Assembly (NCBI GenBank): GCA_947489925.1
Contig: CANLFK010000002.1
Span: forward strand, 1-33,175
Direction of reading: 5' to 3'
Source: Candidatus Caenarcanales bacterium
Lineage (GTDB): Bacteria > Cyanobacteriota > Vampirovibrionia > Caenarcaniphilales > Caenarcanaceae
Length of the DNA stretch: 33,175 bases
A model generated the notes under the pieces. It made no database searches and was not told the DNA's origin. It saw only the letters and a program-made list of their open reading frames with translations. Each line of letters begins with the position of its first letter. Position 1 is the first letter of the stretch. Positions 7,535 to 31,895 of this stretch are shown here, one piece after another. A program made the translations under genes and the position numbers.

Positions 7535-7728
7535 GATAATTTTATAAAACTTATTAAAAAAACACCTGATTAGTTTATTTTTATTTAGACTATTAGTTCA
7601 TACAGTATTGTGAAAATAACCGCCAGTTGGTTTAATTATTAAAGACTGAAAATGATTCTCAAGTCCGTTTAACTAAGTTGTTTTAGTTTACAATTACTGG
7701 GCTACCTAAAAATGGTTGAAATAATTGT

Positions 7729-9573: not shown

Positions 9574-9584
9574 AGTTTAATTTA

Positions 9585-9626
9585 AGTACCCTGATATTTA
9601 ATACTTTGGGGTACTATTTTTATTTT
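9585..9626 (+). terminator. Putative intrinsic terminator downstream of pckG
   Basis: AGTACCC (9585-9591) pairs with GGGTACT (9609-9615) and is followed by atttttatttt. The loop is large (17 nt), so the call is only moderately convincing. Confidence 0.4.
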
Positions 9627-10454
9627 ATGACTATTTCTCCATTATTAATTCAAAGAGCTAAAGCTTTCCGTACCAAAAAGAGTTTGGGGCAGAATTTCCT
9701 TGTTGATTCAGATATTTTGCACACAATCAAAAATTCCTTAAACAGTCCAATTGAAACTAATATAATTGAAATTGGGCCTGGAATTGGCTTTTTGACGGAA
9801 ATTTTGTATAAAGATTTTAAAAATTTAAATGTTATTGACCTTGATAAATACGCACTAGACCGTTTAGACAATTCTAATAAAATAAATATTATTCATGCAG
9901 ATGCTTTGCATTTTGATTTTAATAGTTTGGCTAAGCCCCTGACTGTTATTGGGAATTTACCTTTTAATGTTGGTACTTTAATTTTGATGAATTTTTTGGG
10001 CGAAATAGACAATCCAGATTGGAAAGTATCAAATATCAATGAAATGGTTTTAATGTTTCAACTGGAAGTAGCTCAACGATTAACGGCATCTTCTTCCAGT
10101 AAAGCTTATAATGCACTTAGTATTACAGCTCAATCTAAGGCTGATATTGAGTTTTTATTCGAAGTTCCAGCTCAAGCTTTTTGGCCAATTCCAAAGGTAA
10201 AAGCTGGAATTATTAGAATTAAGCCTAAAAGCAATAATATTTTGCAAACTCTTTCGGAAATAGAATTGAAAAATTTAAAAAAAATTATCAAAATGGCTTT
10301 TTCAACAAGACGCAAAAACTTAAAAAACTCTTTAGCTAATTTATTTACAGTTCAAGACTTTGAAAATTGTCATATTTGTTATACAGAAAGAGCTGAAAAT
10401 TTAGATTTACCTGATTATATTGAATTAAGCAAATATTTAAGCCAAAAGAATTAG
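9627..10454 (+). CDS. rsmA: 16S rRNA (adenine1518/1519-N6)-dimethyltransferase
   Basis: KSLGQNFLVDSDIL, the SAM motif IIEIGPGIGFLT and GNLPFNV are classic KsgA/RsmA. I prefer the ATG at 9627 over the track start at 9606 (TTG), which lies inside the putative pckG terminator. Confidence 0.9.
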   Translation: MTISPLLIQRAKAFRTKKSLGQNFLVDSDILHTIKNSLNSPIETNIIEIGPGIGFLTEILYKDFKNLNVIDLDKYALDRLDNSNKINIIHADALHFDFNSLAKPLTVIGNLPFNVGTLILMNFLGEIDNPDWKVSNINEMVLMFQLEVAQRLTASSSSKAYNALSITAQSKADIEFLFEVPAQAFWPIPKVKAGIIRIKPKSNNILQTLSEIELKNLKKIIKMAFSTRRKNLKNSLANLFTVQDFENCHICYTERAENLDLPDYIELSKYLSQKN

Positions 10455-10507
10455 ATCTTTGAGTCATCAATTGTTAAGCATTTTTAAACAGAGTTTATTA
10501 TAGAATT

Positions 10508-11884
10508 TTGGGTTATATTAAACTAAAAGTGTTTTCTTTGTGCAGCCAATTGAAAAAGTTTTTTCTAATTTTAATTCTAATTTTCATTAGTCCTCTGCGT
10601 CAATTATCTTTAGCTGAGAGTGATTTTACAGAACAGCAAAAAAAAGATATTTCTTCGCTTGAGAGTAGATTCTTTGGCTTAACTTATCCAGCGGACAAAC
10701 CTTCTAGTAGAATATCTAGGATTGAAGAATTAGTTTTTGGACACAATAATAGTCAGAGTACTTTGCCTGAGAGGCTTGTCAAATTAAATAAAGCTACCAA
10801 AGTTGCACAATCATCAGCTCCTTTACCAGAATTACCACCAGATGATGAAATTGCTAATCAACAAAAAGAACAAATATCACCCAAAAATAATAATCAAATT
10901 GCCAAAGCACCCAATAATACACAAAATAAACAAATAATTTCTTTAAACAACCTAGATGATTTAAGCCAAGAAATGCTTCAAATTATTAATCAGGAGCGTT
11001 CATTAAGATCTTTACCAAATTTAAATACTGATCAAATTGCTTACAGAACGGCTTATCAACAAGCTAATTATTTAATTCAGACAAGGCAATTTTCGCATTA
11101 TAGTTTGCAAAATAAAAATCCAGACCAAAGATATACTGAACAAAGTGGAGATGGAAGAATTGAAGAATTAGTAGAAGGTTTTTTTGCTTCGGTTAATGAT
11201 AAAGGTATTGTTATTCCGATAGAAATAAACCGTGAAATTCCTCATCAATTAATGGATGCTATTTTAAAAGTACCAGACAAAGCAGATATAATTTTTAATA
11301 GTTTAGCTAATGGTATTGGTATAAGTTTTATTTTAGCCCCAGATAAAAGCCAATTAGTGGTAGTAGCTGAAATTAGTGTTGATTATGGAGATTTAGCTAT
11401 TCTTCCTCCTAAGGCTTCAATTTCGGAAGATATTGGTGTTAGCGGTAGCCTGAGCCGAGGTTATAAATTTGCTTGGGTTGGAATCTCAAAGTCTGATTTA
11501 GATGAAGAGGAAAAGTCCGAAACGGAAGCTTCTGCTTATTTTGCTCCGATTGATCAAGTAATTTATTTAAACAAATCTGGAGACAGAGCCAAAAATATAG
11601 CTAAAGCAGGTGGAGCAATATTGGCTATGGTAGCCGCTCCTTTTACATATGGGGCTAGTGTTTTAATTGCTAATGTTTTAATGCAAAGTATTGCCCAAAC
11701 CTATCAATCTCAAGATGTTGAAGTTAGAGATGGAGCTAAAGCGGATATGGGTGGTGGAAACTTTAATAGTAGTATTACTTTGGGTGAATGGGGAAAAGGC
11801 ATTTATTATATTACTGTTTGGGCTATTCCTCCTTCCGAAAAAAAACCAGTAATTATTAGCAGAAGAGCTGTAAAAGTAATTTAG
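10508..11884 (+). CDS. Secreted or membrane-anchored CAP/SCP (YkwD-like) domain protein
   Basis: 458 aa. There is an N-terminal signal-like segment KKFFLILILIFISPLRQLSLAE. The central part, MLQIINQERSLRSLPNL..D.IAYRTAYQQANYL..T.QFSHYS, resembles the CAP domain. There is also a C-terminal hydrophobic helix. The start codon is uncertain (non-ATG; alternatives up to 10550). Confidence 0.5.
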   Translation: MGYIKLKVFSLCSQLKKFFLILILIFISPLRQLSLAESDFTEQQKKDISSLESRFFGLTYPADKPSSRISRIEELVFGHNNSQSTLPERLVKLNKATKVAQSSAPLPELPPDDEIANQQKEQISPKNNNQIAKAPNNTQNKQIISLNNLDDLSQEMLQIINQERSLRSLPNLNTDQIAYRTAYQQANYLIQTRQFSHYSLQNKNPDQRYTEQSGDGRIEELVEGFFASVNDKGIVIPIEINREIPHQLMDAILKVPDKADIIFNSLANGIGISFILAPDKSQLVVVAEISVDYGDLAILPPKASISEDIGVSGSLSRGYKFAWVGISKSDLDEEEKSETEASAYFAPIDQVIYLNKSGDRAKNIAKAGGAILAMVAAPFTYGASVLIANVLMQSIAQTYQSQDVEVRDGAKADMGGGNFNSSITLGEWGKGIYYITVWAIPPSEKKPVIISRRAVKVI

Positions 11885-12116: not shown

Positions 12117-12692
12117 TTACAACTTATTTTGAGATCTGTGAGCTTGAATAATTTGTATAATGCTTTGAGCAGTTTCTTCAATTTTGCCTTCTTCATTTAT
12201 GACTAAATTTTCAAATTGATTTATTTCTTGTAATTCTTGTTTTGATTTTTCCACTCGAGCTAATATTTTTTCTTCTGATTCAGTCGATCTTTCTTTTAAT
12301 CGTTTATATAAAACCTCAATTGAAGGCGGAGCCAAAAAGATAAATAAGGCATTTGGCAAAATTTGTTTTATTTGCTTAGCACCTTCCACTTCAATTTCTA
12401 AAATAATATCTTTATTAGCTTTAACTTGATCTTCAATATATTTTTTTGGTGTTCCGTAAAAATTGCCGACAAATTCAGCCCATTCAATTAATTCACCTTT
12501 TTCAATCATTTGTTTAAATTCTTGCTTGCTTTTAAAAAAATAATTTATACCTTCTATTTCTCCAGCTCTTTTTGGTCTAGTAGTGGCTGAAACCGAAAAA
12601 ACTAAATTATCCAAATCTTGAAAGACTTTTTTTAAAACAGTTCCTTTACCAACTCCCGAAGGACCAACTATTACAATCAGATTTCCTGCCAT
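12117..12692 (-). CDS. gmk: Guanylate kinase
   Basis: 191 aa. It shows IVIVGPSGVGKGT, SATTRPKRAGEIEGINYFF and GNFYGTP. Confidence 0.95.
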   Translation of the reverse strand: MAGNLIVIVGPSGVGKGTVLKKVFQDLDNLVFSVSATTRPKRAGEIEGINYFFKSKQEFKQMIEKGELIEWAEFVGNFYGTPKKYIEDQVKANKDIILEIEVEGAKQIKQILPNALFIFLAPPSIEVLYKRLKERSTESEEKILARVEKSKQELQEINQFENLVINEEGKIEETAQSIIQIIQAHRSQNKL

Positions 12693-13532: not shown

Positions 13533-14000
13533 TTATGTCCATTTAGTAATTAAAAATTGAATTTGCTCATTAATCCAGCCAGTTTTATGATTAAGCAAAA
13601 TTTCTTCTTTTATATCTGGATAAACAATTAATTCATTTAAGTTTTTCAAATTATGATATTTAACTTCAGCAATTATGTCTTCATCTGATCCAATTATAAT
13701 TTCTTGACCTTCAAAAACCTTTACTAAAGCAAAAATATTAATTATATGTCTTGAATTATTTGGTGCAATTGATTCGGATAAAAAAACAATTCTCTCAAAT
13801 TTTCCTGTCAGAGAAGTCTCTTCTTTCAATTCACGCAAAGTACCAGCTTCAATTGTTTCCCCAAACTCCAAATGTCCGCCTGGTAAAACCCAATATTCAC
13901 GGTCTTTTTTGCGATGTTTAATTAATAAAATTTCTTGTTTTTCATTAATGATAATAGCTGAAACTCTAATTGTAGGACTTCCAATACTGTCTGCTGTCAT
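13533..14000 (-). CDS. NUDIX hydrolase
   Basis: 155 aa with the Nudix box LPGGHLEFGETIEAGTLRELKEETSL. Confidence 0.8.
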   Translation of the reverse strand: MTADSIGSPTIRVSAIIINEKQEILLIKHRKKDREYWVLPGGHLEFGETIEAGTLRELKEETSLTGKFERIVFLSESIAPNNSRHIINIFALVKVFEGQEIIIGSDEDIIAEVKYHNLKNLNELIVYPDIKEEILLNHKTGWINEQIQFLITKWT

Positions 14001-17969: not shown

Positions 17970-20339
17970 ATGGCCCTCTCTAATACTGCTCAAAATATTA
18001 TGATTCCTCAGTCAATTGAAGCTGAGCAAGCTGTTTTGGGTTGTATTATGACAAATAATGAAATCTTTGGTGAAATATTAGAAGTATTTAGCGAAAATTA
18101 TCGTATTTTTTATGATTTAACTCATCAGAAAATTTTTGAAGTATTTGTAACTTTAAATCGTGAAAAAAAGCCAATTGACATTATTACCGTTATTGACAGA
18201 TTAACAATTAATGGACAATTAGATGAAGTTGGCGGACATGAATATTTAGTTAATTTGGCAGAAAGTGCTTCAATTGGTGGAAATGCAATTTATTATGCTC
18301 AAATTATCCAAGAAAAATTTACGCTTAGGCAATTAATCAAGGCTGGCAATAAAATCATTGAGAATTCTTTTAAATCAAATAATGTTGATGAAGTTTTAGA
18401 TGAAGCTCAACAAAGTATTTTTGCGATTGGAGCTAAGCGGTCAAATAATAGCTTAATGCGTATCGATGAAATTACTACGCCAGTTTGGAAGCAAATAGAA
18501 GAGAGATATGAAAATCAGGGTTCATTACTGGGTACTTCTTCTGGATTTATTGATTTGGATAATATGACGGCTGGATTACAAAAATCAGATTTGGTTATTG
18601 TTGCTGCTAGGCCATCTATGGGGAAATGCTTAGGAAAAGGAACAAAAGTTTTAATGTTTGATGGTTCTCTCAAAAAAGTTGAAGACATTAAAGAAGGTGA
18701 TACCTTAATGGGTGATGATTCCCTGCCAAGAAAAGTTTCCTCAATAGCTTCTGGTATAGAAAAAATGTATTGGGTTAAACAAAACAAAGCCATTGATTAT
18801 AGAGTAAATGAAAGCCATATTTTATCCCTGAAGCGTAGTAGAAATGAGGGTAAATTTAAAAAAGGTGAAGTTTTAAATATTTCGATTAAAGATTATTTAG
18901 CAAAATCTGATAAATTCAAGACAAATTACAAAGGATATAAAGTAGCCGTAGAGTTTGCCGAAAAAGAATTGGCGCTTCAACCTTATTTTTTAGGTCTATG
19001 GTTAGGAGATGGTCATTCATATAGTTCAAGAATTACGACTATTGATAATGAAGTTATTGAATATTTGAGTGAATATGCAGAGAGCTTGAAATTAAAACTT
19101 GTTAAATATAGTCAGATTAATCGAACACCAGACTATGGTATTACAAAAGGCGGCATAAAAAAAACTAAAACAGACAATAATATACAAGCTGAGCTAAGAA
19201 AGCTGAATTTACTTAGAAATAAACATATTCCAAATAATTATTTAATAAACTCAACTCAAAATCGCTTAAATTTATTGGCTGGTTTATTGGATAGCGACGG
19301 TTATTATGATAAAAATTTTAATTGCTATGAAATCGTTCAGAAAAATTTACAACTCGCAAATCAAATTAAATTTCTTTGTGATTCTTTAGGATTTAAAGTT
19401 TCATTAAAAAAGAAAAATGCAACTATAAAATCAATTGGTTTTAAAACTGAGGTTTATCGTATAAGGATTTTTGGTGATTTAGATAAAATACCTGTTCTGA
19501 TTCAACGCAAAAAAGCTCGCCCTTTACAATCAAAAGCCGACTGGAGAGTTACTGGAATTCAAGTTGAATATGATAAAGAAGATGAATATTATGGATTTAC
19601 AATAGACGGAAATCATTTGTTTTTGCTAGAGGACATGACTGTTACCCACAATACCGCATTTTGTTTGAATATTGCTGAATATGTTGGTGTGGTGGAAAAG
19701 TGTCCAGTAGCGGTTTTTAGCTTAGAAATGTCTAAAACACAACTTGTAAACCGTATGATTTGTAGCATTAGTGGAGTTGATTCACAAAGAATAAGAACTG
19801 GTAATTTACGAAATGAAGATTGGGATCGAATTAGCCATGCAATTGGTGTTTTGTCGGGAGCACAAATTTATATTGATGATACAGCCGCTTTAACGGTCAT
19901 GGATATTAGAACTAAAGCTCGTAAACTTAAAACCGAAAAAAAAGACTTAGGTTTAATTGTGATTGATTATTTACAACTTATGTCTGGGTCTGGCAAAGAA
20001 AACCGTACTCAAGAGATTTCTGAGATTTCAAGAGGTTTAAAAAGTTTAGCTCGTGAATTGAATGTACCAATTATTGCTCTTAGCCAGTTATCTCGTGGTG
20101 TAGAAGCCAGAACTGATAAAAGACCAATGCTTTCAGATTTAAGAGAATCGGGTGCTATTGAACAAGATGCTGATATGGTGGTGTTTTTGTATCGACATGA
20201 ATATTATGAGCCAAATGACACTTCCCGAAGCGGAGAATGTGAAGTTATTATTGCCAAACAAAGAAATGGCCCAGTTGGAACGGTTAAATTAAGCTTTCAT
20301 GGAGCGACAACTCGTTTTAATAATTATGCAAAGGAATAA
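17970..20339 (+). CDS. dnaB: Replicative DNA helicase DnaB, interrupted by an intein (447-aa extein plus 342-aa intein)
   Basis: The N-terminus IPQSIEAEQAVLGCIM is typical of DnaB. Walker A is split as ARPSMGK|C...HN|TAF. The C-terminal part has the DnaB/RecA-like blocks (IVIDYLQLM, EISRGLK.LARELNVPIIALSQLSR, AKQRNGP). Confidence 0.95.
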   Translation: MALSNTAQNIMIPQSIEAEQAVLGCIMTNNEIFGEILEVFSENYRIFYDLTHQKIFEVFVTLNREKKPIDIITVIDRLTINGQLDEVGGHEYLVNLAESASIGGNAIYYAQIIQEKFTLRQLIKAGNKIIENSFKSNNVDEVLDEAQQSIFAIGAKRSNNSLMRIDEITTPVWKQIEERYENQGSLLGTSSGFIDLDNMTAGLQKSDLVIVAARPSMGKCLGKGTKVLMFDGSLKKVEDIKEGDTLMGDDSLPRKVSSIASGIEKMYWVKQNKAIDYRVNESHILSLKRSRNEGKFKKGEVLNISIKDYLAKSDKFKTNYKGYKVAVEFAEKELALQPYFLGLWLGDGHSYSSRITTIDNEVIEYLSEYAESLKLKLVKYSQINRTPDYGITKGGIKKTKTDNNIQAELRKLNLLRNKHIPNNYLINSTQNRLNLLAGLLDSDGYYDKNFNCYEIVQKNLQLANQIKFLCDSLGFKVSLKKKNATIKSIGFKTEVYRIRIFGDLDKIPVLIQRKKARPLQSKADWRVTGIQVEYDKEDEYYGFTIDGNHLFLLEDMTVTHNTAFCLNIAEYVGVVEKCPVAVFSLEMSKTQLVNRMICSISGVDSQRIRTGNLRNEDWDRISHAIGVLSGAQIYIDDTAALTVMDIRTKARKLKTEKKDLGLIVIDYLQLMSGSGKENRTQEISEISRGLKSLARELNVPIIALSQLSRGVEARTDKRPMLSDLRESGAIEQDADMVVFLYRHEYYEPNDTSRSGECEVIIAKQRNGPVGTVKLSFHGATTRFNNYAKE
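18627..19652 (+). mobile_element. DnaB intein with a LAGLIDADG homing-endonuclease domain (342 aa, residues 220-561 of the ORF)
   Basis: It starts with Cys (CLGKGTKVLMFDG, block A) and has a block B-like VNESHILSL. Two LAGLIDADG motifs are present (YFLGLWLGDGHS and LLAGLLDSDGYY). It ends ...LFLLEDMTVTHN, followed by Thr, which restores the GKT of the P-loop. Confidence 0.9.
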
Positions 20340-20344
20340 ATATT

Positions 20345-22078
20345 TTAAGCATTTACCGTTAATTGTTTCTTCCAGAGCTTTTGATAAATTTCACTATTTT
20401 TCAATAAATAATCACTATTTCCAGACTCAATACAAGCTCCTTTTTCAATAATATAAATTTGTTCAGCTTGTCTTAAAGACGAAATACGATGAGTAATTAA
20501 AATTAAAGTTTGTTTTTGTTCTTTTAAATATTCTTGTAATTCATTTAAGATTTTTAAGCCAATTTCATTATCTACGCTCGACAAGGCATCATCCAAAATT
20601 AAAATGCGTGGTTTTTTGATAATTGCTCTAGCTAATGCAATTCTTTGAGCTTGCCCACCCGATAAAGAAACTCCTTTTTCACCGACTAAAGTATTGTAAG
20701 CTTCTGGCATTTTACTAATTTCTGTGTGTATTTGAGCAATCTCAGAGGCTTTTATCATTTCCTCCTCTGAAGCTCCAGAGCCTAATAAAATATTGTCTTT
20801 AATGCTTTTATTAAATAAAAATGTTTCTTGCGGTATTAAAGCAACTGATTGTCTTAGAGAGCTTAAAGAATAATTATTTATATCTTGTTCATCAATAAAA
20901 ATCGAATTTGGTTTTATATCAATTAATCGCATTAAAGCATTAGCCAAAGTACTTTTTCCAGAGCCAATTAAACCGACAATACCAACAAATTTTCCACCTT
21001 TAATTTCGATATTTAAATTATTTAAGGCTTTTTGTTCAGTGTCTGGGAATTGAAAGTCTAAATTTTGAATTTTAATATTAGCTTCTTTTACTACGATTAA
21101 AGCCGGGTTAGCAGAATTATCAATAATATGTGCTTTTTCATCAAAGACTTCTTTTATTCTTTGTACGCTAACAGCCCCTCTCTGAAAAATGGTAATTAAC
21201 CAGCCCATAATAGCGGTGGGGAATAAAAGCCTTTCTAGGTAAATTAAAAAAGCCGCAATTGTGCCAGCTGACAAAAGCCCTTTGCTGACATAAAAAAGCA
21301 ATATAAAAAAACTAATACCTCGAGCAAGTTCCATAATTGGCCAAATAATACCTCTCCAGCGGGCTAATTCGGTTGAAGTATTTAAATATTTATTATTAAC
21401 TTTTTCAAATCTTTCAATTTCTCGGGTTTCTTGGCTATAAGATTTAATTACTTGTATGCCATTTAAATCTTCTTCGATGAATGAGCTTAATGAGCCTAAT
21501 TGTTCTTGAGCTTCAATTTGTTTGGTTTTGAGTTGTAGGCTTAAATGCCTGACTAACATAAATATGGGTAAATAACCTAGCAAAATATAAAAAGTTAGTG
21601 ATGCATTGAGCTTAAACATAATCGGTAAAGTCAAAAGATAAACCCAGACAATATTGACAATATTTAATAAACCAAAACCCATCATTTGCCTAATAGCTAA
21701 AATATCATTGGTCGCACGGGAAATTAAATCGCCAATTCTTTGTGTACTAAAATAAGCTAAATCAAGCTTTAATAAATGTTCATAAAAGTTTTGTTTCTGC
21801 TCTGATTCAACACGCCGACCAATACCAAATAATACAATTCGTGATGCTGTGCGAATACCAGCCATTAAGAGAGCTAAAATTATAACCAAACTTAAATTAA
21901 ATAAAATATTTTGATCTATTTTTAAATTATTTTTGACTAAATTATCAATTAAAGACTTGATCAGTAAAGGTATATAAACGCCTAGTCCATTTGTGGCGAT
22001 TAGCAAAAAAGTACCCAAAGAAATTTCTTTTGCGTAAAGCTTAACCTGATTAAAAAAGAATTGAACTGAAATAGACAT
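20345..22078 (-). CDS. ABC transporter, fused permease/ATP-binding protein (MsbA/multidrug-exporter type)
   Basis: 577 aa. The N-terminal half has six hydrophobic helices. Walker A is GLIGSGKST, the signature is LSGGQAQR, and Walker B is ILILDDALS. Confidence 0.9.
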   Translation of the reverse strand: MSISVQFFFNQVKLYAKEISLGTFLLIATNGLGVYIPLLIKSLIDNLVKNNLKIDQNILFNLSLVIILALLMAGIRTASRIVLFGIGRRVESEQKQNFYEHLLKLDLAYFSTQRIGDLISRATNDILAIRQMMGFGLLNIVNIVWVYLLTLPIMFKLNASLTFYILLGYLPIFMLVRHLSLQLKTKQIEAQEQLGSLSSFIEEDLNGIQVIKSYSQETREIERFEKVNNKYLNTSTELARWRGIIWPIMELARGISFFILLFYVSKGLLSAGTIAAFLIYLERLLFPTAIMGWLITIFQRGAVSVQRIKEVFDEKAHIIDNSANPALIVVKEANIKIQNLDFQFPDTEQKALNNLNIEIKGGKFVGIVGLIGSGKSTLANALMRLIDIKPNSIFIDEQDINNYSLSSLRQSVALIPQETFLFNKSIKDNILLGSGASEEEMIKASEIAQIHTEISKMPEAYNTLVGEKGVSLSGGQAQRIALARAIIKKPRILILDDALSSVDNEIGLKILNELQEYLKEQKQTLILITHRISSLRQAEQIYIIEKGACIESGNSDYLLKNSEIYQKLWKKQLTVNA

Positions 22079-22083
22079 TTTTT
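22045..22083. repeat. 39-bp direct repeat, copy A (covers the ATG and the first 11 codons of the ABC exporter gene)
   Basis: cctgattaaaaaagaattgaacTgaaatagacatttttt. It is identical to 22447-22485 except for one base. Confidence 0.9.
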
Positions 22084-22099
22084 ATTGAATTAATTGTTA

Positions 22100-22432
22100 T
22101 TAAATTAGTTGTTTTGCTCTAGTTTTTGCACACTCAGCAATAAATTTATTTAAACTTGTGCCAGCTTTTTTTGCTGCTAAAGAAATAATTATATGATCTT
22201 GTGGTTCAATTCTTAAAGTTATATTTCCAGAGTATGGCTTTTCAGGTTTAAGCCCGAGCTTTTCGCAAAAATTAAGATAATCATTTACTGCTTCTTGAAA
22301 ACCTTTTCTCAATGAATTAACGGAATCACCTTCAAAACTAATCAGAGATTTAATCCCAGCAATTTTTCCATAAAATAAATTATCTTCGTCTGAATAGTCT
22401 AATTCAGCATAAAAATTTTTATATTTCATCAT
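22100..22432 (-). CDS. hicB: HicB-family antitoxin (COG4226-type, RHH C-terminus), with no cognate hicA
   Basis: 110 aa. YKNFYAELDYSDEDNLFYGKIAGIKSLISFEGDSVNSLRKGFQEAVNDYLNFCEKLGLKPEKPYSGNITLRIEPQDH...AAKKAGTSLNKFI follows the HicB consensus almost block for block (YKGY.GSVEFS.ED..F.GK..GI.D.ISFEG.SV.EL...F.EAVDDYL..C...G..PEKP.SG.F.LR..PELH...A...G.SLN.F). Confidence 0.8.
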   Translation of the reverse strand: MMKYKNFYAELDYSDEDNLFYGKIAGIKSLISFEGDSVNSLRKGFQEAVNDYLNFCEKLGLKPEKPYSGNITLRIEPQDHIIISLAAKKAGTSLNKFIAECAKTRAKQLI

Positions 22433-22446
22433 ATTTATATCTTAGT

Positions 22447-22485
22447 CCTGATTAAAAAAGAATTGAACCGAAATAGACATTTTTT
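22447..22485. repeat. 39-bp direct repeat, copy B (relic copy of the ABC exporter 5' end, now a 12-codon mini-ORF upstream of hicB)
   Basis: cctgattaaaaaagaattgaacCgaaatagacatttttt. On the minus strand it reads ATG TCT ATT TCG GTT CAA TTC TTT TTT AAT CAG GAC TAA (22480-22442). The stop lies 9 nt before the hicB ATG. Confidence 0.9.
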
Positions 22486-22591
22486 GTAATTTTATTATAA
22501 TAAAGAACTTTTACTCATAATGAAAGCACGGCAAATTACTGATAAACAATGTTAAGATCTGAAAAAATTTTGTTTAAAAAGGTAATCTTCT

Positions 22592-23506
22592 GTGAGCTTA
22601 TATCCAAATGTTTATTTTGAAGGAAAATTTGTAAGTGCCGAAAAAGCCAAAATTAGTGTTTCAACGCATGCTTTTTTGTATGGAACTTCAGTCTTTGAAG
22701 GAATTAGAGCTTACTGGAATGAAAAAGAAGGCAAATCTTATATTTTTCGCCCTTTAGAGCATTATCAAAGATTAAAACAAAGTGCCAAAATCCTAAGAAT
22801 TGAAATTAAGCAATCACCTGAACAATTAGTCGAATTAACAAAAGAATTAATTAATTTAAATAAACCAAAAGAAGATGCTTATATCAGACCAATTGCTTAT
22901 AAAGCTGATTTACGAATTGGGCCAGCTCTTTTAAATAATAAAGATGAATTTTGTCTTTTTGCTCTTCCAATGGGTGATTATATTGATACAACTAAAGGTA
23001 TTTCGGTAACGGTATCCAGCTGGCGAAGAGTAGAAGATAATGCTATACCAGCCAGAGCCAAAATTGCTGGTAGTTATGTGAATACGGCTTTGGCTAAAAC
23101 CGATGCACTTTTAAGTAATTTTGCTGATGCTATTGTTTTGGACGAAAGAGGTCATGTAGCGGAAGGAAGTGCCATGAATTTAATTTTAGTGCGGAATGGC
23201 AAATTAATTACTAGCCCTGTAACCGATAATATACTCGAAGGAATTACCAGAAGTACAATTATTCAATTAGCCAAAGACGAATTAGGACTTGAAACCGAAG
23301 AAAGAACGATTGACCGCACCGAATTATATATTGCTGATGAAATGTTTTTCTGTGGAACTGGAGCACAAATTAGCCCAATTACTTCGGTGGATTATTATAA
23401 AATTGGAGATGGTGAAGTTGGAGCAATTACCACTAAATTAAAAGATTTGTATTTTGCTTTGGTGCATAATCAATTGCCTAAATATTCAAACTGGTGTATT
23501 TCTTAA
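22592..23506 (+). CDS. ilvE: Branched-chain-amino-acid aminotransferase (class IV PLP fold)
   Basis: 304 aa with a GTG start. It shows YGTSVFEGIRAY, EGSAMNLILVRNGKLITSP, ILEGITR and FFCGTGAQISPI. Confidence 0.8.
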   Translation: MSLYPNVYFEGKFVSAEKAKISVSTHAFLYGTSVFEGIRAYWNEKEGKSYIFRPLEHYQRLKQSAKILRIEIKQSPEQLVELTKELINLNKPKEDAYIRPIAYKADLRIGPALLNNKDEFCLFALPMGDYIDTTKGISVTVSSWRRVEDNAIPARAKIAGSYVNTALAKTDALLSNFADAIVLDERGHVAEGSAMNLILVRNGKLITSPVTDNILEGITRSTIIQLAKDELGLETEERTIDRTELYIADEMFFCGTGAQISPITSVDYYKIGDGEVGAITTKLKDLYFALVHNQLPKYSNWCIS

Positions 23507-23594: not shown

Positions 23595-24959
23595 ATGACT
23601 ATAACCAGCAAATCAAATTCAGCTCGCAAAGAATTAAGTAGCTCTCAAATTACCGAAATTGCTAGAGCGGAAGATGTCCAGCATATTCAATTACAATTTG
23701 TAGATTTGCATGGTCGTCCTAAGCAAATGACTGTTCATGTCGATATGCTAGACAAAGTTCTTAATAATGAAATTATGCTTGATGGCTCTTCGATTGCTGG
23801 TTTTCGTTCGATTGAAACCTCAGATATGTTTTTCTTCCCCGATAAAGCCACTTTTCAGGTTTTGCCTTGGACTCAAGGTGGAAAAAAAGCCGCTAGATTA
23901 ATTTGTGATATTTATAATCCAGACGGAACTCCTTTTGAAGGCTGTCCACGCAATAATTTAAAAAGAGTTCTCAAAAAAGCTTCTGACCTTGGTTATGTTT
24001 TTAATGTTGGCCCAGAGCTTGAATTCTTCTTATTCAAAAAAGACAGTAAAGGCAATGTTACGATGGATACCCACGATGCGGCTGGTTATTATGATTTAGC
24101 ACCCGATGATTTAGCTGAAGATGTCAGAAGCAGAATTACGGAAGTTTTAGAGAGCTTAGGTTTTAATATTGAAGCGTCTCACCATGAAGTAGCTGAAGGA
24201 CAACATGAAATTGATTTTCAATACGGTGATGCTTTAATGACTGCTGATAATGTTGTTAATTTCAAAATTGTAACTCGCAAAATTGCCTCTGATTATGGTT
24301 TGCACGCCACTTTTATGCCTAAGCCAGTTTTTGGTATTAATGGATCTGGTATGCATTGTAATCAATCTTTGGGTGATATTAATGGCAATAATACATTTTT
24401 AGATGAAAAAGCTGAATATCAATTGAGCCAAAAATCACTTTATTATATTGGTGGGCTTTTAAAATATATTCGTGAATTTGCCGTTGTAACCAATCCTTTG
24501 GTCAATAGCTATAAACGATTAATACCTGGATATGAAGCACCTGTTTATATTGCTTGGTCACCTTCCAATCGTAGTGCCTTAATTAGAGTTCCAGCCAAAA
24601 GAGGAAAATCTACTCGTATTGAACTTCGCTCTCCAGATCCAAGTTGTAATCCTTATTTAGCTTTTGCGGTTATGCTAACGGCTGGCTTAAAAGGAATTGA
24701 AGATAAAATCGCTCCACCAGCTCCAACTCAGGTTAATATTTATGATATGAATGAAGCGGAAAGATTAGAGCATTCAATACCAAGTTTGCCGGGTAGTTTG
24801 TATGAAGCACTTGAAGAATTCAAAAAAAGTGATTTAGCGAGAGAAGCTTTGGGCGAGCATATTTATAATGAATTTATTAAAGCGAAAACTCGTGAATGGG
24901 ATGAATACAGAACTTATGTTTCAGCTTGGGAAGTAGATAAATATTTGCAAAGATTTTAA
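23595..24959 (+). CDS. glnA: Glutamine synthetase, type I
   Basis: 454 aa. It shows LQFVDLHG, DGSSIAGF, GPELEFFLF, HHEVAEGQHEIDF, KPVFGINGSGMHCNQS, NSYKRL and RIELRSPDPSCNPYLAFA. Confidence 0.95.
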   Translation: MTITSKSNSARKELSSSQITEIARAEDVQHIQLQFVDLHGRPKQMTVHVDMLDKVLNNEIMLDGSSIAGFRSIETSDMFFFPDKATFQVLPWTQGGKKAARLICDIYNPDGTPFEGCPRNNLKRVLKKASDLGYVFNVGPELEFFLFKKDSKGNVTMDTHDAAGYYDLAPDDLAEDVRSRITEVLESLGFNIEASHHEVAEGQHEIDFQYGDALMTADNVVNFKIVTRKIASDYGLHATFMPKPVFGINGSGMHCNQSLGDINGNNTFLDEKAEYQLSQKSLYYIGGLLKYIREFAVVTNPLVNSYKRLIPGYEAPVYIAWSPSNRSALIRVPAKRGKSTRIELRSPDPSCNPYLAFAVMLTAGLKGIEDKIAPPAPTQVNIYDMNEAERLEHSIPSLPGSLYEALEEFKKSDLAREALGEHIYNEFIKAKTREWDEYRTYVSAWEVDKYLQRF

Positions 24960-24972
24960 ATTTTGTTAAAAA

Positions 24973-25143
24973 ATGAAAACCGAAATAATTATCCGTTTAC
25001 TTATTTCGGTTTTAGTATCTCTATGCTTATTTATTTTTAACTTTTTATATATTCCTCCTTCTCCTCTTCCCGAGTATCATTGTGGATTGGCGGTGACTAT
25101 TAAGCCTTACACGACAAAGATAAAAATAAAATTATTTACATAA
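24973..25143 (+). CDS. Possible 56-aa single-pass membrane peptide upstream of the SIR2 gene (speculative)
   Basis: Hand translation: MKTEIIIRLLISVLVSLCLFIFNFLYIPPSPLPEYHCGLAVTIKPYTTKIKIKLFT*. It has one clear hydrophobic helix. It falls below the ORF-track length cutoff and overlaps the terminator hairpin, so it may be fortuitous. Confidence 0.2.
   Translation: MKTEIIIRLLISVLVSLCLFIFNFLYIPPSPLPEYHCGLAVTIKPYTTKIKIKLFT
24976..25014 (+). terminator. Putative intrinsic terminator of glnA
   Basis: There is a 13-bp perfect stem, aaaaccgaaataa (24976-24988) with ttatttcggtttt (25001-25013), and a 12-nt loop. It begins 17 nt after the glnA stop and runs into a T tract. The stem is AT-rich. The same sequence can also be read as the start of a 56-codon ORF (next feature). 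Confidence 0.5.
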
Positions 25144-25262
25144 TAAATATCTGAAAAAAGTTTGTCTTTAATTAATATGTTTAAAATAGAATTACTCTTT
25201 CTAAAGTTTTAAAATTAAGTTTGCTATTCTTGATCTTTATATTTATTTGATTATTTGGATTT

Positions 25263-28200
25263 ATGAGTGAAACGATTCCATCTAAAGAAAAGTATGAGCT
25301 AATTGAGAATGCTTATAAAAATGGCAAATTGTGTCTGTTTATTGGTGCTGGAATATCTAATTTAGCTGGTTGTCCTACATGGACAGAGTTGTGTCAAGCA
25401 ATTATAAAAGATGAGCAAATAGGTACTAATGATTTCCAGTATAAAGAGTCTTTAAAGAAAGAAACAGATAATAAAAAACTTTTGACAGTTATTTATAAAT
25501 TATTTGAAGACAAAAGAGAAGATAAAGAAGAAGCTAAAAAAAGTTTTTTTAATATTATAAAAACCCATTTGGAATCAAAGGAAAAAAAACACGATCAAGA
25601 AAAAGATAAAAATATATACAAAATTATTCAAAAATTACAAAATGTTTTAAAAATAACTACTAATGCGGATAAAGTAATCGATAAATATCTAAAAGGTCTT
25701 AGAGAAGTTACTTATAAAGATTTTACAAGTGACAAGTTACCTTTAATAGAAAATTCTTCAAGTAGAAATAAGCTGAATCAACTTTTTAAAATTCATGGAA
25801 CGGTTTCGCCTCAAGAACAGGGAGATTATGAGCAGCTAATTTTTACAACACCAAATTATTTAAAAAGATATAAAGACTTAGAGTTTATAAAATTCTTAAA
25901 AGATTTATTTGAACAGTACACAGTATTATTTATTGGTTATGGATTAAAGGAATTTGAGCTACTGCAATATGCTCTCCCAGAAAAAGAATTAACAAAAAAA
26001 CATTTTCTTTTAAAAGGTTATTGTTCTTTTGAAAAAATAGAAAAAGACTTTGACGAGATTTATCTTGAAGAATTAGGTATTGAATTAATTGATTTTAATC
26101 ATGATAAGTTAGGCTATGAGCAGTTAATTGTTGTTTTGGAAAAGTGGGTTAATTCATTACTTATAAAAGATTTTGCTATAGCTAGAGAAACTATTAAAAA
26201 GTCAGACATTTCATTTGAAGAGATTAACGCTTTGTTAATAGAACATAAAGTAAAAGAAAAATATGATACACAAGAGCAAATTTTTAGAGATGCTTTGAAT
26301 CATGTACCGAAAGAGACTTATTTGAAATGGTTAGAAGGACTGAAACGCAATGGATTTTTAGAACCACAAAACTTTATGAAAATAGGTTTAAGCAAAGATG
26401 AAGAAGGAAAAGACTGGGCTTCTTACTCATCTCTTTTTACTTTTCTGATCAAAATAAACAAAGAACCTTCTCAGAAAAGTGATACTGATAATCTTTTTAT
26501 TGAATTAGTTGATAGTTTTATAGATTTTCTGAAGGATAAAAAAGATAAGCAAGAGGAAGTAATATATAATCCTAATTCAAGAGCGTGTTTAATCGAAATA
26601 ATTTGTAATTTTGAGCTTGAACAATTAAGTGAAAAACACATTGAATTTTTAGGAGAAAAGTATTTAAGTCGTTCAACTATTAGTATTAAAGAAAAACTAT
26701 TACCCAAATTATTAAAAAAAGACAGTGAGCCAAAATTATTTTTTTGTTTTATTAAAAGTGTTTTACTTTCAAGCTCAGTAGATCAACTTTCAATTGAAAA
26801 GCTTTTAGAAAATTATTATTCAAAAATTATAAATAAAGATAGAGAAAAATTAATTGATATTTGCGAAGAGCGTATAAATTTTATTGAAAAAGAAAGTACT
26901 TCAAAAAATTCAAACCTAATTAGTTTTTGGGCTTTTAGAATAAGGAAAATAATAAAACAACAGAAGCCAGATTCTAAATACCGTGATTCTGATTTCTTTG
27001 AGAAACTATCTGTTTATTTTTTATATATGACTTTATTAGAACAAAGTACTGATTACTTAAAGAATAAAGTTCAAGAATATTTAAAGAAAGACAAATCTAT
27101 TTATCAAAGAATAGCAATATTTGTTATTAATCATAAATACGATGAACTGAAAGATTTGCTTTGGAATTTACCTTTCAATCCATTTATTAATTATTCAATT
27201 AAGCCCGAATTTTTTATACTTTTACAGAATCATCAAGACTTAAACACGGAAGAAGTAGATAAGTTTTTTAGCTGGTTAGATGAATATGACTTAAATAAAA
27301 AATTTTATAATGAAGAAGATGAAGCACAAAAAGAAGAAATAAGAGCATATCAGAGACAGCTAAAAATAGTTTTATTACAAAAAGAAGATAAAACCTTTTG
27401 CAATCAAAAGCTTGCTGATGAATATAAAAAGCTGGCAGAAAAAACAGGAAAAGATAAGTGGTCAAAAGAAGACTTAGATGGTTCTCTTATAGGAGAAGTT
27501 AAGCTTTATACAATTAATGAAGTTCATATTGCTGAAACATTGGACTTAGGTACTCAGCTTAGTTCAAAAAATTCCGTAAAAGAAGTACTTGAATATATTA
27601 AAAATTATAAACCTTCAGAAGATGAATTAAAAAAATTAAAACATAATTCGTTTGACTGGACTTCTGGGCTTGGTGAAGCTTTAGAAAATGATATAAAACA
27701 AAAACCTGAAAAATATTTGACCAAAGAAATATACGAATTTTTAGATTCAGCAAATTTCATACAAATAGAAACTAATTCTTGGGATTATGATTGTTCTCAA
27801 AAATATACTCTCTCTTTATTTATAGAATCATTGCAAAGCTTAAATCTTTTAGAGCTTGTGTCAGAAGAAGAAATTCAATGTTTATTAGTTTTTTTAGAAG
27901 AGTTAATAAATTCTCGTGAAACTGATAGTGATGATTCTTTATTGCGTCATATCAGTGAATTACTAATCAAATTAATTAATAAATCAACACTTTCAAATAT
28001 TGAAAAATTATTATTACAATGTGCAGAAAAAACAGAAGATAATAAGACTTATGATCACTGGAAAGATGAGCCACTAAATGGTTATTTAAATGCTCCAAGA
28101 GGTGTAATTTTAGATAATCTAATGCAATTTGTTTTAGAAGAAGCAAAAATAAAAGAAAGTAAATTATTTAATTCAAATATTTTAGATTATTTTGAAAAGT

Positions 28201-29054
28201 GTTTAGATTCAGCTAGTACATCAGATTATCCACATTTATGGTGCTGTCTAGGATTATTCTTTTTTTATATTAACTCCGCCAATAAAGATTGGGCAGAAAA
28301 GAATGTGAATAAAATATTTCCAAAAGATAAAGACGATAAGTGGTATGCTGCATTTTACTCTTATTGTTACCGAGCATGGCATATTGGCTTAAATGAAAAG
28401 CTAAGTAAAGTTTTTATAGAAGCTGGACATTATGATAAAGCAATAAAATATCAAGTACTTAAAGAAGGAAGTGATTTTTATAGAATAATAGCAAATCAAA
28501 TAGCTTCACTATCAGTATTACCAAAAGGAGACACTGAATTAATACTGCTAAATGATTTAATATCAAATGGTACTAATGATTTATTTAAAAGCTTTCTTGG
28601 AGAATTTAGAGTAGGTAGATATTCAGACTCACAAAAAATTGACCTTAAAAAGATTTGGCAACAATGCTTAGATAGATTAAACAAGGAAGAGAAAAAAGAT
28701 ACTTATTTGTACTTATCTTTAGCGGAATGGATAGAGTTAATAAAAGACTTAGATGCAGGTTTTGAAAAACTTTTAAGAGATACTTTAGAACTTCCTCTTG
28801 AGAAGCATTCACAAATTGATGACTTTTATTTTTTATTTGAAAGCTTTGCTAAATTATCTGAGAAATCTGAAGAGCAAGCTAAATTTGTAGCTGATTTATG
28901 GATATTTTTAATTGAGCACCCTTACTCAAGACTAATTAACTATCCCGAAGAAGAGATTAAACAAACTTTAGAAAATATCCAAAAGCATTCATTTAGAGAA
29001 GCGGAAAGCATTAAAGATATTTATAAAAATAGATGGGATTATACTTTTTCTTAG
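25263..29054 (+). CDS. Large SIR2-domain protein: N-terminal SIR2_2-type NADase-like domain (about aa 15-300) plus about 960-aa unassigned alpha-helical region; DSR-like candidate defence protein
   Basis: Uninterrupted 1263-aa ORF. The motifs, in canonical SIR2_2 order, are LFIGAGIS (GAG at 25344-25352), the ITTNAD Asn motif (Asn134 at 25662-25664), FKIHGT (His178 at 25794-25796) and LFIGYGLKEFEL (aa 222-233). The rest is K/E/L/I/N-rich with no motif I can assign. Confidence 0.8.
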   Translation: MSETIPSKEKYELIENAYKNGKLCLFIGAGISNLAGCPTWTELCQAIIKDEQIGTNDFQYKESLKKETDNKKLLTVIYKLFEDKREDKEEAKKSFFNIIKTHLESKEKKHDQEKDKNIYKIIQKLQNVLKITTNADKVIDKYLKGLREVTYKDFTSDKLPLIENSSSRNKLNQLFKIHGTVSPQEQGDYEQLIFTTPNYLKRYKDLEFIKFLKDLFEQYTVLFIGYGLKEFELLQYALPEKELTKKHFLLKGYCSFEKIEKDFDEIYLEELGIELIDFNHDKLGYEQLIVVLEKWVNSLLIKDFAIARETIKKSDISFEEINALLIEHKVKEKYDTQEQIFRDALNHVPKETYLKWLEGLKRNGFLEPQNFMKIGLSKDEEGKDWASYSSLFTFLIKINKEPSQKSDTDNLFIELVDSFIDFLKDKKDKQEEVIYNPNSRACLIEIICNFELEQLSEKHIEFLGEKYLSRSTISIKEKLLPKLLKKDSEPKLFFCFIKSVLLSSSVDQLSIEKLLENYYSKIINKDREKLIDICEERINFIEKESTSKNSNLISFWAFRIRKIIKQQKPDSKYRDSDFFEKLSVYFLYMTLLEQSTDYLKNKVQEYLKKDKSIYQRIAIFVINHKYDELKDLLWNLPFNPFINYSIKPEFFILLQNHQDLNTEEVDKFFSWLDEYDLNKKFYNEEDEAQKEEIRAYQRQLKIVLLQKEDKTFCNQKLADEYKKLAEKTGKDKWSKEDLDGSLIGEVKLYTINEVHIAETLDLGTQLSSKNSVKEVLEYIKNYKPSEDELKKLKHNSFDWTSGLGEALENDIKQKPEKYLTKEIYEFLDSANFIQIETNSWDYDCSQKYTLSLFIESLQSLNLLELVSEEEIQCLLVFLEELINSRETDSDDSLLRHISELLIKLINKSTLSNIEKLLLQCAEKTEDNKTYDHWKDEPLNGYLNAPRGVILDNLMQFVLEEAKIKESKLFNSNILDYFEKCLDSASTSDYPHLWCCLGLFFFYINSANKDWAEKNVNKIFPKDKDDKWYAAFYSYCYRAWHIGLNEKLSKVFIEAGHYDKAIKYQVLKEGSDFYRIIANQIASLSVLPKGDTELILLNDLISNGTNDLFKSFLGEFRVGRYSDSQKIDLKKIWQQCLDRLNKEEKKDTYLYLSLAEWIELIKDLDAGFEKLLRDTLELPLEKHSQIDDFYFLFESFAKLSEKSEEQAKFVADLWIFLIEHPYSRLINYPEEEIKQTLENIQKHSFREAESIKDIYKNRWDYTFS

Positions 29055-29182
29055 TCCAGAACCTCATAGCCAGAGTCCAAATTTAGCGGATAAATGGATT
29101 GTTTAAGTATTAAAGAAATGAGTAAAATAAAACTATGAGAGCAAATAAAACAATGAAAATTTTAGAGTTAATCAATAAAGAA

Positions 29183-29422
29183 TTAATTATTTGAAGGCTT
29201 AAAGCCATTTTGTATTCCAAAGCCTTTTATTGAGTCAAGGTTTATATTATTATTACTGTTTAGTTTGAATGAATCATCGGCTAATTGATTGGGTTTAAGA
29301 TTATTAGACTCATTAGTTTTAGTTTTATCTTTATTAGTATGATTTAAAGCTTTACTTAAAATGTTGTCTAAATCACTTTTTTTTCCTAAAAATGGATTTT
29401 CTCTTTCAAAATTAATACTCAT
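29183..29422 (-). CDS. Hypothetical low-complexity small protein (79 aa), downstream of pyrG
   Basis: ORF only; N/K/S-rich with no recognisable motif. Confidence 0.3.
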   Translation of the reverse strand: MSINFERENPFLGKKSDLDNILSKALNHTNKDKTKTNESNNLKPNQLADDSFKLNSNNNINLDSIKGFGIQNGFKPSNN

Positions 29423-29580
29423 AAAAAGCTAAACTCTCAGTTCGGTTGATTTATATAATTTATTAAAAAAGACTTTCTTTAAATTTAAGTTAAATATACT
29501 CTTTTAATGGGGCTTAATATCAATTTTCTAGGGTTATACAAATTTAATTTTGGTGTTTTCCCATTAAGTTTTATTTTTAT

Positions 29581-31215
29581 TTAAAACCCCAAGCAAGCCT
29601 TTATAAAAGATAAAAATAAAGGATGAACTTTGTCTGGGCGAGATTTGTATTCTGGATGAAATTGTGTACCAACAAAAAATGGATGTTTGTCTTTTGGTAT
29701 TTCAATAATTTCAACTAATTTACCATCTGGCGACCGACCCGCCACAATTAAACCAGCTTCTTTTAGTTTATTACCAAATAAATTATTAAATTCATATCTA
29801 TGTCTATGTCTTTCATTTATAGTTTTAGTTTTATAAGCTTCCAGCGAAATACTATTATTTTCCAATTCACAAGGATAGCTTCCCAGCCTCATAGTACCGC
29901 CTTTATCGGTATTATCTGATTGACCTGGCAAAAAGTCTATTACTGGATGAGGAGTATCATTAGCAAACTCGGTACTATTTGCCCCCGAAAGCCCCGCCAC
30001 ATTTCTGGCAAACTCAATAACCGCACATTGCATACCCAAGCACAAACCCAAAAATGGAATTTTATTTTCACGAGCGTATTGAATAGCTCTTATTTTGCCT
30101 TCTATTCCACGATCTCCAAATCCACCTGGTACTAAAATACCTTTTACATCTTCAAAAGCTTCTTCCAGAGACAAATTCTTTTTATTAAATTCTTCAATAT
30201 CTTCAGATAAAACCCACTTAACTTCGATTTCAGAATCCTGCACGGCTGAAGCATGACGCAAAGATTCAATTACGCTGATATAAGCATCGCTTAGTTTTGT
30301 ATATTTACCGACAATGGCGATTTTAATTTTTTGAGTTGGATTTTTAATTTTCTCGACAACCGACTTCCAAGAATCAATATTTAAAGCTCTTTCTTCCAAT
30401 TGCAAGCGATTTAATAGTCTTTTGGTTAAATTTTGTTCTTCTAAGTTTAAAGGAACTTCATAAATTGATTTAACATCTCGACATTCAATAACCGAATCCA
30501 GAGCGACATCTGAAAATAAAGATAATTTTTCTCTAATTTGTTTGGAAACTGGCTTTTCTGCCCGACAGACTAAAATATCTGGATTTATGCCACGACCACG
30601 CAATATTTCGACTGAATGCTGAGTTGGTTTGGTTTTTAGCTCATTGGTTGCTTTTAAATTAGGAATTAAAGTTACATGCAAATAAGCGACATTATTCCAA
30701 CCAACATCTTTTTTTATTTGTCTGATTGATTCAAGAAAAATTAAGCTCTCAATATCTCCGACTGTGCCACCAACTTCGACTATTACAATTTCAGATTCAG
30801 TTGTATAAGCGGCTTCAAAGATTTTAGTTTTAATTTGATTTGAAACATGAGGTACCATTTGAACTGTTCCGCCCAAATATTCACCTTTTCGCTCTTTATT
30901 AATTACCGAAAGATAAATTTGTCCAGCCGTTACATTATTGATTTTAAATAAATTAGAACCAGTAAACCTTTCATAATGCCCTAAATCCAGATCTGTTTCG
31001 GCACCGTCTTCAGTTACAAAAACTTCTCCGTGCTGATAAGGACTCATAGTACCTGGATCAACATTTAAATATGGATCGAGTTTTTGAATAGTAACTTTAT
31101 AGCCCCGCCCTTTGAGTAAAAGCCCCAAAGAAGAAGCAATTATACCTTTACCTAAGCTACTGACGACTCCACCAGTAATAAAAACATATTTTGGATTAAT
31201 TGAATTAGTTGGCAT
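29581..31215 (-). CDS. pyrG: CTP synthase
   Basis: 544 aa. It shows [53 protein letters not shown], the GATase Cys in GLCLGMQ, and HRHRYEFN. Confidence 0.95.
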
Positions 31216-31218
31216 TGT

Positions 31219-31521
31219 TTAATCAGCCATTTTAGGCACTTTAAAGAAATTACCTTCCATTTGGGGAGCTATTTTGATCATTTTATCAATTATATTTTTG
31301 CTTAAATCATTTAATTCATCTGCTCTCAAAGGAGTTTCATTTAAGCCGCCAGAAGGCTGAGCCAAAGGTTGAATATTGTCAGTATTTATAGAATTTAAGC
31401 TTTCAACATAATTAAAAATTTTACTTAATTCACTCGCAAAGACAGGTAATTCATCTTCAGGAATAGCTAAGCGGGCTAATTTGGCAATATTGGCAATTTC
31501 TAAGGTTGAGATTTCAGTCAT
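31219..31521 (-). CDS. gatC: Asp-tRNA(Asn)/Glu-tRNA(Gln) amidotransferase subunit C
   Basis: 100 aa. IANIAKLARLAIPEDELPVFASELSKIFNYVESLNSINTDNIQPLA is the GatC pattern. The gene ends 3 nt upstream of pyrG. Confidence 0.85.
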   Translation of the reverse strand: MTEISTLEIANIAKLARLAIPEDELPVFASELSKIFNYVESLNSINTDNIQPLAQPSGGLNETPLRADELNDLSKNIIDKMIKIAPQMEGNFFKVPKMAD

Positions 31522-31606: not shown

Positions 31607-31895
31607 ATTACTATAACAATCCCAGACTAAAATAGACCTTGAATATTTTATGACTTAATAAACCCCCCAGCCCCCTTGACAGAGGGAGTTCTGGAATTTT
31701 TATTGAAAAACTATCAAGTTTAAAGCTAGACTTAAACCATCAGATAAGCTTTTAACTGATTAAAAAATATAATCTTGGGAATACTAAAACATTTAGTTCC
31801 CCCTGTCAAGGGGGCGAAGGGGGTTTAGCAAATGAAATTCTTTAGAAACTAATTAAACACTAGTTCACTTTATTTCGGGATTGCTATAATAAAAT
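31607..31895. repeat. Nested imperfect inverted repeat (about 290 bp) with GC-rich inner arms; MITE-like element or structured RNA
   Basis: The inner arms are taaaccccccagcccccttgacagagggag (31659-31688) and ttccccctgtcaagggggcgaagggggttta (31797-31827), which are reverse complements apart from small indels. The outer arms are attactataacaatccc (31607-31623) and gggattgctataat (31877-31890). The right inner arm itself contains the hairpin CCCCCT-gtca-AGGGGG. Confidence 0.6.

Follow-up and report, generated by a model that had tools for sequence, protein, structure and literature searches.

The gene considered here lies on contig CANLFK010000002.1 of assembly GCA_947489925.1, from a Candidatus Caenarcanales bacterium, of which positions 1 to 33,175 were analysed as one stretch of 33,175 nucleotides (the window). 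It consists of a single open reading frame (ORF) on the forward strand at 25263..29054, with an ATG start and a TAG stop, that encodes 1263 amino acids (aa) and matches the PADLOC profile Dsr1 PDLC04166, which places it in the DSR1 family of SIR2-based anti-phage proteins. Shuffling this DNA 200 times by mononucleotides gave open stretches of at most 123 codons, so an ORF of this length is far beyond chance. The gene is flanked upstream by glnA (23595-24959), and downstream, on the reverse strand, by an ORF of 79 aa (29183-29422), pyrG (29581-31215) and gatC (31219-31521); glnA, pyrG and gatC are identified by Pfam. The upstream spacer of 303 bp (24960..25262) has a guanine-plus-cytosine (GC) content of 0.23, and the downstream spacer of 128 bp (29055..29182) is followed by the 79-aa ORF in convergent orientation. 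In all of these points, the ORF, its neighbours and the spacers, the coordinates and Pfam matches agree with the first-pass annotation of this DNA, which had been made by a model from the letters and a list of ORFs.

The protein consists of two modules in series. The first, aa 1 to about 316 (25263..26210, + strand), is a SIR2_2 domain of predicted NADase function, delimited by Pfam, the Dsr1 profile, an AlphaFold2 (AF2) model and Foldseek. SIR2_2 (PF13289; E 5.2e-14, aa 131-237) is also the only Pfam domain found in the 1263-aa protein. The four motifs that the first-pass annotation had listed occur in the order it gave, with LFIGAGIS starting at aa 25, ITTNAD at aa 131, FKIHGT at aa 175 and LFIGYGLKE at aa 222, and the positions of N134 and H178 are likewise correct. 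At the DNA level, the Rossmann residues G28-A29-G30, assigned to binding of nicotinamide adenine dinucleotide (NAD+), are encoded at 25344..25352, N134-A135-D136 at 25662..25670 (N134, the putative catalytic Asn, by AAT at 25662-25664) and H178, the putative catalytic His, by CAT at 25794..25796, all on the + strand and each checked codon by codon. The second module, aa about 317-1263 (26211..29051, + strand), is a DSR1-type alpha-solenoid sensor, delimited by the Dsr1 profile and the AF2 model. Its description as a helical region rich in Lys, Glu, Leu and Ile is confirmed by the predicted structure and by the composition of the C-terminal 963 aa (K 11.7%, E 10.5%, L 12.9%, I 8.3%). Neither a Walker A motif, nor a CxxC pair, nor a transmembrane-grade hydrophobic segment was found in the whole 1263-aa protein, which bears out the earlier statement that the C-terminus carries no ATPase or transmembrane motif.

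The catalytic residues are conserved. A search of 5.8 billion proteins returned 34 relatives. The nearest full-length relative (P0002) has 1268 aa and is 41% identical over 99% of the query, while a dozen homologues of 1206-1262 aa show about 25% identity over 81-95% of the query. G28, A29, G30, N134, D136 and H178 are invariant in alignments of 28 and of 32 homologues. Among sequences in the PDB the SIR2 NADase KomC ranks first (E 2.9e-5; with the family profile, 7.4e-12); H178 aligns to KomC H146, which is changed to Asn in PDB entry 9xvc 'KomC(H146N)', and N134 aligns to KomC N107. From the PDB the family profile further retrieves ThsA and FAM118B, a human antiphage-like sirtuin, but neither a DSR2 chain nor any chain that corresponds to the sensor. 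Invariance, the alignment with KomC and the SIR2 fold together support N134 and H178 as the catalytic pair, as had been proposed.

When the whole protein is compared with Dsr1 PDLC04166, aa 13-1256 correspond to profile positions 15-1211 of 1227 in one collinear stretch (E 2.9e-124). Each module also carries the match by itself. Scanned alone, aa 1-300 cover profile positions 15-281 (E 1.2e-60), a significant result for the SIR2-family check that had been suggested for this region, and aa 301-1263 cover positions 303-1211 in a single stretch (E 1.7e-62). The same profile is matched by 28 of 28 aligned homologues. Other PADLOC profiles are confined to the first module or absent: those of ThsA match the SIR2 part only (E 2e-10), that of LmuA matches aa 12-289 only, and the Dsr2 profile gives no match at E <= 1 in the scan of the full protein. 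The protein thus belongs to the DSR1 family, and the first-pass description of it as a stand-alone, "DSR-like" SIR2_2 protein of defence type with a helical sensor is supported by Pfam, PADLOC and the predicted fold. It is very probable that it is a full-length, divergent DSR1 and constitutes a single-protein anti-phage system acting by the mechanism already described for the family. In these features it resembles the characterised DSR1 (Gao et al. 2020, Garb et al. 2022), which is also a single protein of ~1200-1270 aa with an N-terminal SIR2_2 domain and an Asn/His pair; the sensor of the window protein is a homologous helical region of ~900 aa, which follows the curated profile collinearly throughout, and there is no partner gene. 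The genomic setting differs in that the window gene sits among housekeeping genes rather than in a defence island. The assignment places DSR1 in a poorly sampled, uncultivated and non-photosynthetic cyanobacterial lineage of the Melainabacteria type.

The first-pass annotation had also considered that the C-terminus might be a new sensor module. In such a new SIR2 family, the C-terminal 960 aa would form a previously undescribed sensor fused to a DSR-like NADase. Neither Pfam nor NCBIfam holds a model for this region, no solved structure is alike beyond generic HEAT/ARM solenoids, and the sequence is only 13-22% identical to other DSR1 sensors, with P0002 (41%) as the exception. However, the match of the sensor alone to the Dsr1 profile is full-length and of high coverage, so this part of the annotation does not stand. 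A phmmer search of 1.84 billion representative proteins, with only the sensor as query, points the same way, since it returned 222 relatives (111 at E <= 1e-10) and every relative then tested matched the same Dsr1 profile. A new sensor therefore seems very improbable. The locus holds neither a new sensor nor a new system and needs no new category.

The structural predictions are consistent with this picture. The AF2 model of aa 1-320 has a mean predicted local distance difference test score (pLDDT) of 84 and a predicted template modelling score (pTM) of 0.84. Among PDB structures, Foldseek places it closest to ThsA, the DSR2 SIR2 domain and KomC (E 1e-10 to 1e-11, TMq 0.60-0.65), so that the predicted fold of the effector resembles those of solved defence SIR2 NADases. 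The model of aa 291-1263 (pLDDT 80) is an all-helical solenoid of more than 50 helices, a shape that is predicted with confidence, and retrieves from the PDB only generic HEAT/ARM solenoids such as CAND1 and karyopherins (TM 0.17-0.30).

DSR2, which senses the phage tail tube, shares the single-gene layout, the alpha-solenoid C-terminus and the N-terminal SIR2 NADase fold (TMq about 0.62), and these likenesses could suggest that the window protein is a tail-tube sensor of the same kind. No relation to DSR2 was detected by sequence or profile, however. Besides the lack of a Dsr2 profile match and of any DSR2 chain in the family profile search of PDB sequences, the top 50 Foldseek matches of the sensor model do not include DSR2, although DSR2 chains are present in the library. 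We consider a DSR2-type protein highly improbable.

The closest solved SIR2 domains, by both sequence and fold, are those of ThsA and KomC. Both are switched on by small-molecule signals that act via other domains or partner proteins, whereas the window protein has no SLOG/STALD domain and its gene has no ThsB, KomA or KomB neighbours. Several other SIR2-containing systems were considered and rejected. For Thoeris, only the SIR2 part of ThsA is matched and no TIR gene occurs among the neighbours scanned. For the LmuA-SIR2 type of Lamassu, the LmuA match ends at aa 289 and no SMC-like gene (LmuB, LmuC) is adjacent. For SIR2-HerA and the SIR2-associated short prokaryotic Argonautes (SIR2-pAgo), the flanking genes are glnA, the 79-aa ORF, pyrG and gatC, with neither a HerA ATPase nor a short pAgo among them. 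A canonical sirtuin deacylase (PF02146, CobB type) was rejected because SIR2_2 alone is matched and the protein contains no CxxC anywhere. In canonical sirtuins, CxxC pairs form a zinc ribbon (Cys4).

A number of observations weigh against the assignment to DSR1 or against parts of the function proposed with it. The protein scores 414 bits against the Dsr1 profile, below the 527-950 bits of other proteins that carry this sensor, and its identity is about 25% to most full-length homologues and 41% to the nearest. The link to DSR1 runs through the curated PADLOC profile and not through an experimentally tested sequence (EcDsr1, WP_029488749.1, or the DSR1 expressed in B. subtilis), and the profile search of the 5.8-billion-protein set reached only members of the same metagenomic clade, with none from E. 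coli or Bacillus subtilis. Sequence, profile and Foldseek searches of the PDB yielded no DSR1 structure and no solved sensor of DSR1 or Avs7, and no other defence genes were found around the gene with Pfam and with PADLOC on the neighbours. Finally, the capsid trigger discussed below would be transferred from one preprint and from a distant relative.

Similar proteins also occur on plasmids of Bacillus. A plasmid of Bacillus paranthracis (NZ_CP085414.1, L091 3965-7939) encodes a 'SIR2 family protein' of 1324 aa that matches the Dsr1 profile with E 2.6e-143. When plasmids were searched by tblastn with the window protein, 114 Bacillus plasmid records gave a match. The majority of these are predicted conjugative plasmids, and in each of the 15 records listed the match is the same, to a 'SIR2 family protein'.

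The relatives of the sensor fall into three length classes among the best 150 of the 222. Those of ~1200-1270 aa are the SIR2-fused form, or DSR1 proper. Those of ~850-1000 aa consist of the sensor only and are the commonest class among the best 150. In the third class (~1050-1150 aa), four of four proteins tested bear the Dsr1 sensor behind an N-terminal module of ~165-200 aa, and this module has no Pfam match in eight of eight proteins (the four tested against Dsr1 and four further ones). In these four (P0049, P0051, P0074 and P0092; ~1080-1150 aa) the Dsr1 profile is matched from positions 274-311 to about 1225, with E values of 1e-158 to 1e-286. Their non-SIR2 N-terminal modules may be alternative effectors. 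A phage-type integrase gene lies near P0051 (L174 3001-6249). The 150 nearest sensor relatives have at most 1285 aa, so none of these is of the STAND type.

The occurrence of one sensor with different N-terminal partners agrees with a 2026 preprint (PMC12803255), which reports homology between the Dsr1 sensor and the TPR-type sensor of Avs7 and describes this sensor as joined to varied effectors. Avs7 is a STAND NTPase whose sensor recognizes phage major capsid proteins. Unlike Avs7, the window protein has no NTPase module, as it lacks a Walker A motif and has no NB-ARC, NACHT, AAA or STAND match in Pfam.

For the sensor-only genes, a separate SIR2_2 gene encoding 295-317 aa lies directly upstream in four of the four lineages in which the upstream gene can be read, and the two genes overlap in three of these four. 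The split operons thus consist of two genes, the SIR2_2 gene and then a sensor gene encoding 919-930 aa, where the window has one fused ORF. The example in L084 (7054-10784) has its SIR2_2 gene at 7054-8004 and its sensor gene at 8001-10784, with an ATGA overlap. Its SIR2 protein is 47% identical to aa 14-317 of the window protein and its sensor 39% identical, and the two products jointly cover the Dsr1 profile (positions 7-281 and 326-1212). Further split operons lie at L085 853-4520, L086 911-4644, L088 3102-6763, L172 2078-5760 and L173 1672-5380. In the split relatives the gene boundary is exactly the module boundary of the window protein. The presence of such natural operons among the closest relatives could help to explain how the sensor controls the NADase. 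If the split forms are active, the DSR1 sensor could control the NADase in trans, and the activation mechanism would be directly dissectable.

The window protein, P0002 and the split form P0035 form a small and deep subclade with 39-42% mutual identity and about 20-25% identity to the rest. One interpretation is that the window protein, P0002 and the split operons represent a deep DSR1 subclade with a recent fusion or fission of effector and sensor, possibly sensing a phage protein other than the capsid protein. We regard this proposal as tentative and rather doubtful. The narrower proposal that the window protein is a DSR1 which, through drift of its sensor, is triggered by some other phage protein than the major capsid protein, with the remaining mechanism unchanged, seems unlikely. 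It would fit both the depth of the subclade and the fast evolution of sensor surfaces in such families, but the capsid trigger is reported to span Avs7 and Dsr1, which are much farther apart than the members of Dsr1 are from one another (PMC12803255).

For the window protein as a DSR1 of the described kind, a mechanism can be proposed by analogy with characterised family members, from which its NADase activity, defence phenotype and trigger are taken over. The SIR2_2 NADase, in which G28-A29-G30 would bind NAD+ and N134 and H178 would catalyse its cleavage, is fused to an alpha-solenoid sensor of ~950 aa. In the uninfected cell the NADase would be kept inactive. Upon infection the solenoid would bind a phage structural protein, most likely the major capsid protein by analogy with the sensors of EcDsr1 and Avs7; for SeAvs7 and EcDsr1 no trigger besides the major capsid protein is reported (PMC12803255). 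Binding would free the SIR2 domain from inhibition, and the freed domain would hydrolyse NAD+ to ADP-ribose and nicotinamide. The resulting fall in NAD+ would then block phage replication. When DSR1 was expressed in B. subtilis, the drop in NAD+ during phi29 infection was transient and phi29 was blocked without collapse of the culture (10.1101/2021.12.14.472415).

The gene is also present in the only conspecific sequences found, two ENA contigs (L001 and L002), where it is disrupted. By blastn, the identity of L001 to the window is 99.95% upstream of position 27476 and 99.6% on its downstream side; for L002, which stops shortly beyond 27476, it is 99.97%. Both carry an insertion after position 27476, at the site ACTTA (27472..27476, + strand), as found by blastn and by direct reading of the sequences. 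In L001 the insertion (12215-12322) consists of 108 bp between 5-bp direct repeats of ACTTA, and a stop codon eight codons into the insert leads to a product of 746 aa. L002 holds a portion of the insert (8550-8599), and the contig ends inside it. The homologues align through the insertion site without a gap, which indicates that the allele in the window is the intact state. The insert has no terminal inverted repeats, no Rfam match and no other copy in the sequences searched, and a 30-base stretch of it has no exact counterpart in viral contigs. That a near-identical population carries a disrupted allele shows the gene to be dispensable in nature, as would be expected for a defence gene. Within a single population, the window and the two contigs offer an intact allele and its disrupted counterpart, a natural pair.

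This dispensability also bears on whether the protein could instead be a housekeeping or regulatory sirtuin, acting as a protein deacylase or ADP-ribosyltransferase on host targets. Its core metabolic neighbours, the lack of a defence island and a GC content inside the range of the window would all suit such a role. However, besides the disrupted copy, the match to SIR2_2 instead of canonical SIR2, the absence of CxxC pairs and the nearest folds, which are those of defence NADases, all argue against it. The gene is also absent from the surroundings of the related loci compared. When glnA was compared with one genome per GTDB species, 80 loci were obtained, all of the Melainabacteria type (Vampirovibrionia; Gastranaerophilales and Vampirovibrionales) with 59-66% identity, and neither DSR1 nor pyrG occurs within 10 kb in any of them. 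Similarly, no DSR1 lies near any of 80 metagenomic pyrG loci, which are at most 60% identical. The relatives in both sets are distant, and neither set shows synteny with the window. A housekeeping role appears extremely improbable.

The base composition of the gene does not by itself point to an origin elsewhere. At a GC content of 0.265 it is lower than glnA (0.360) and pyrG (0.345), and to this extent the AT-richness noted in the first-pass annotation is real. Its use there as a signature of horizontal acquisition does not hold up, as the gene is not statistically distinct from its surroundings. The 26 other ORFs of the window have a mean GC content of 0.317 (standard deviation 0.038), the DSR1 gene lies at z = -1.4 (z = -1.0 for GC at third codon positions) and two ORFs are lower still. 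The compositional case for horizontal transfer was rejected on these grounds. The lowest value of the gene is at second codon positions (0.240). Since GC at these positions reflects amino-acid composition, this fits a sequence rich in Lys, Glu, Leu and Ile.

The gene is presumed to have its own promoter in the AT-rich 303-bp upstream spacer; no consensus sigma-70 site was found on the + strand of this spacer. No terminator-like site was found anywhere in 24800-29700, and the window contains no Rfam family and no tRNA gene. A PADLOC scan of ten neighbouring ORFs gave no credible defence partner. The window gene, P0002 (L003) and the split relatives (L084-L089) are each surrounded by differing and unrelated housekeeping genes, so that no partner is conserved. 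The 79-aa ORF, which gene calling also predicts in L001, is without a match in Pfam, NCBIfam or PADLOC, and a metagenome scan found no relatives of it.

Farther upstream in the window, Pfam identifies a class IV aminotransferase, a HicB-type protein, an ABC exporter and an intein-containing DnaB. The DnaB helicase gene (17970-20339, + strand) is interrupted by an intein (Hint domain) with a LAGLIDADG homing endonuclease. The HicB-family antitoxin gene lies at 22100-22432 on the reverse strand, and there is no HicA-sized ORF of at least 25 aa within 22050-22600. At a distance of 11 kb from the DSR1 gene, an ORF of 155 aa (13533-14000, reverse strand) has a match to PDC-S07, a candidate defence family of PADLOC (E 3.3e-11). 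Downstream of gatC lies a repeat of ~275 bp (31615-31888) with an inverted copy, 87% identical, ~4.7 kb farther on (L001 21398-21673). The LytR_cpsA_psr and RNase HII genes lie between the two copies, the second of which is past the window's end.

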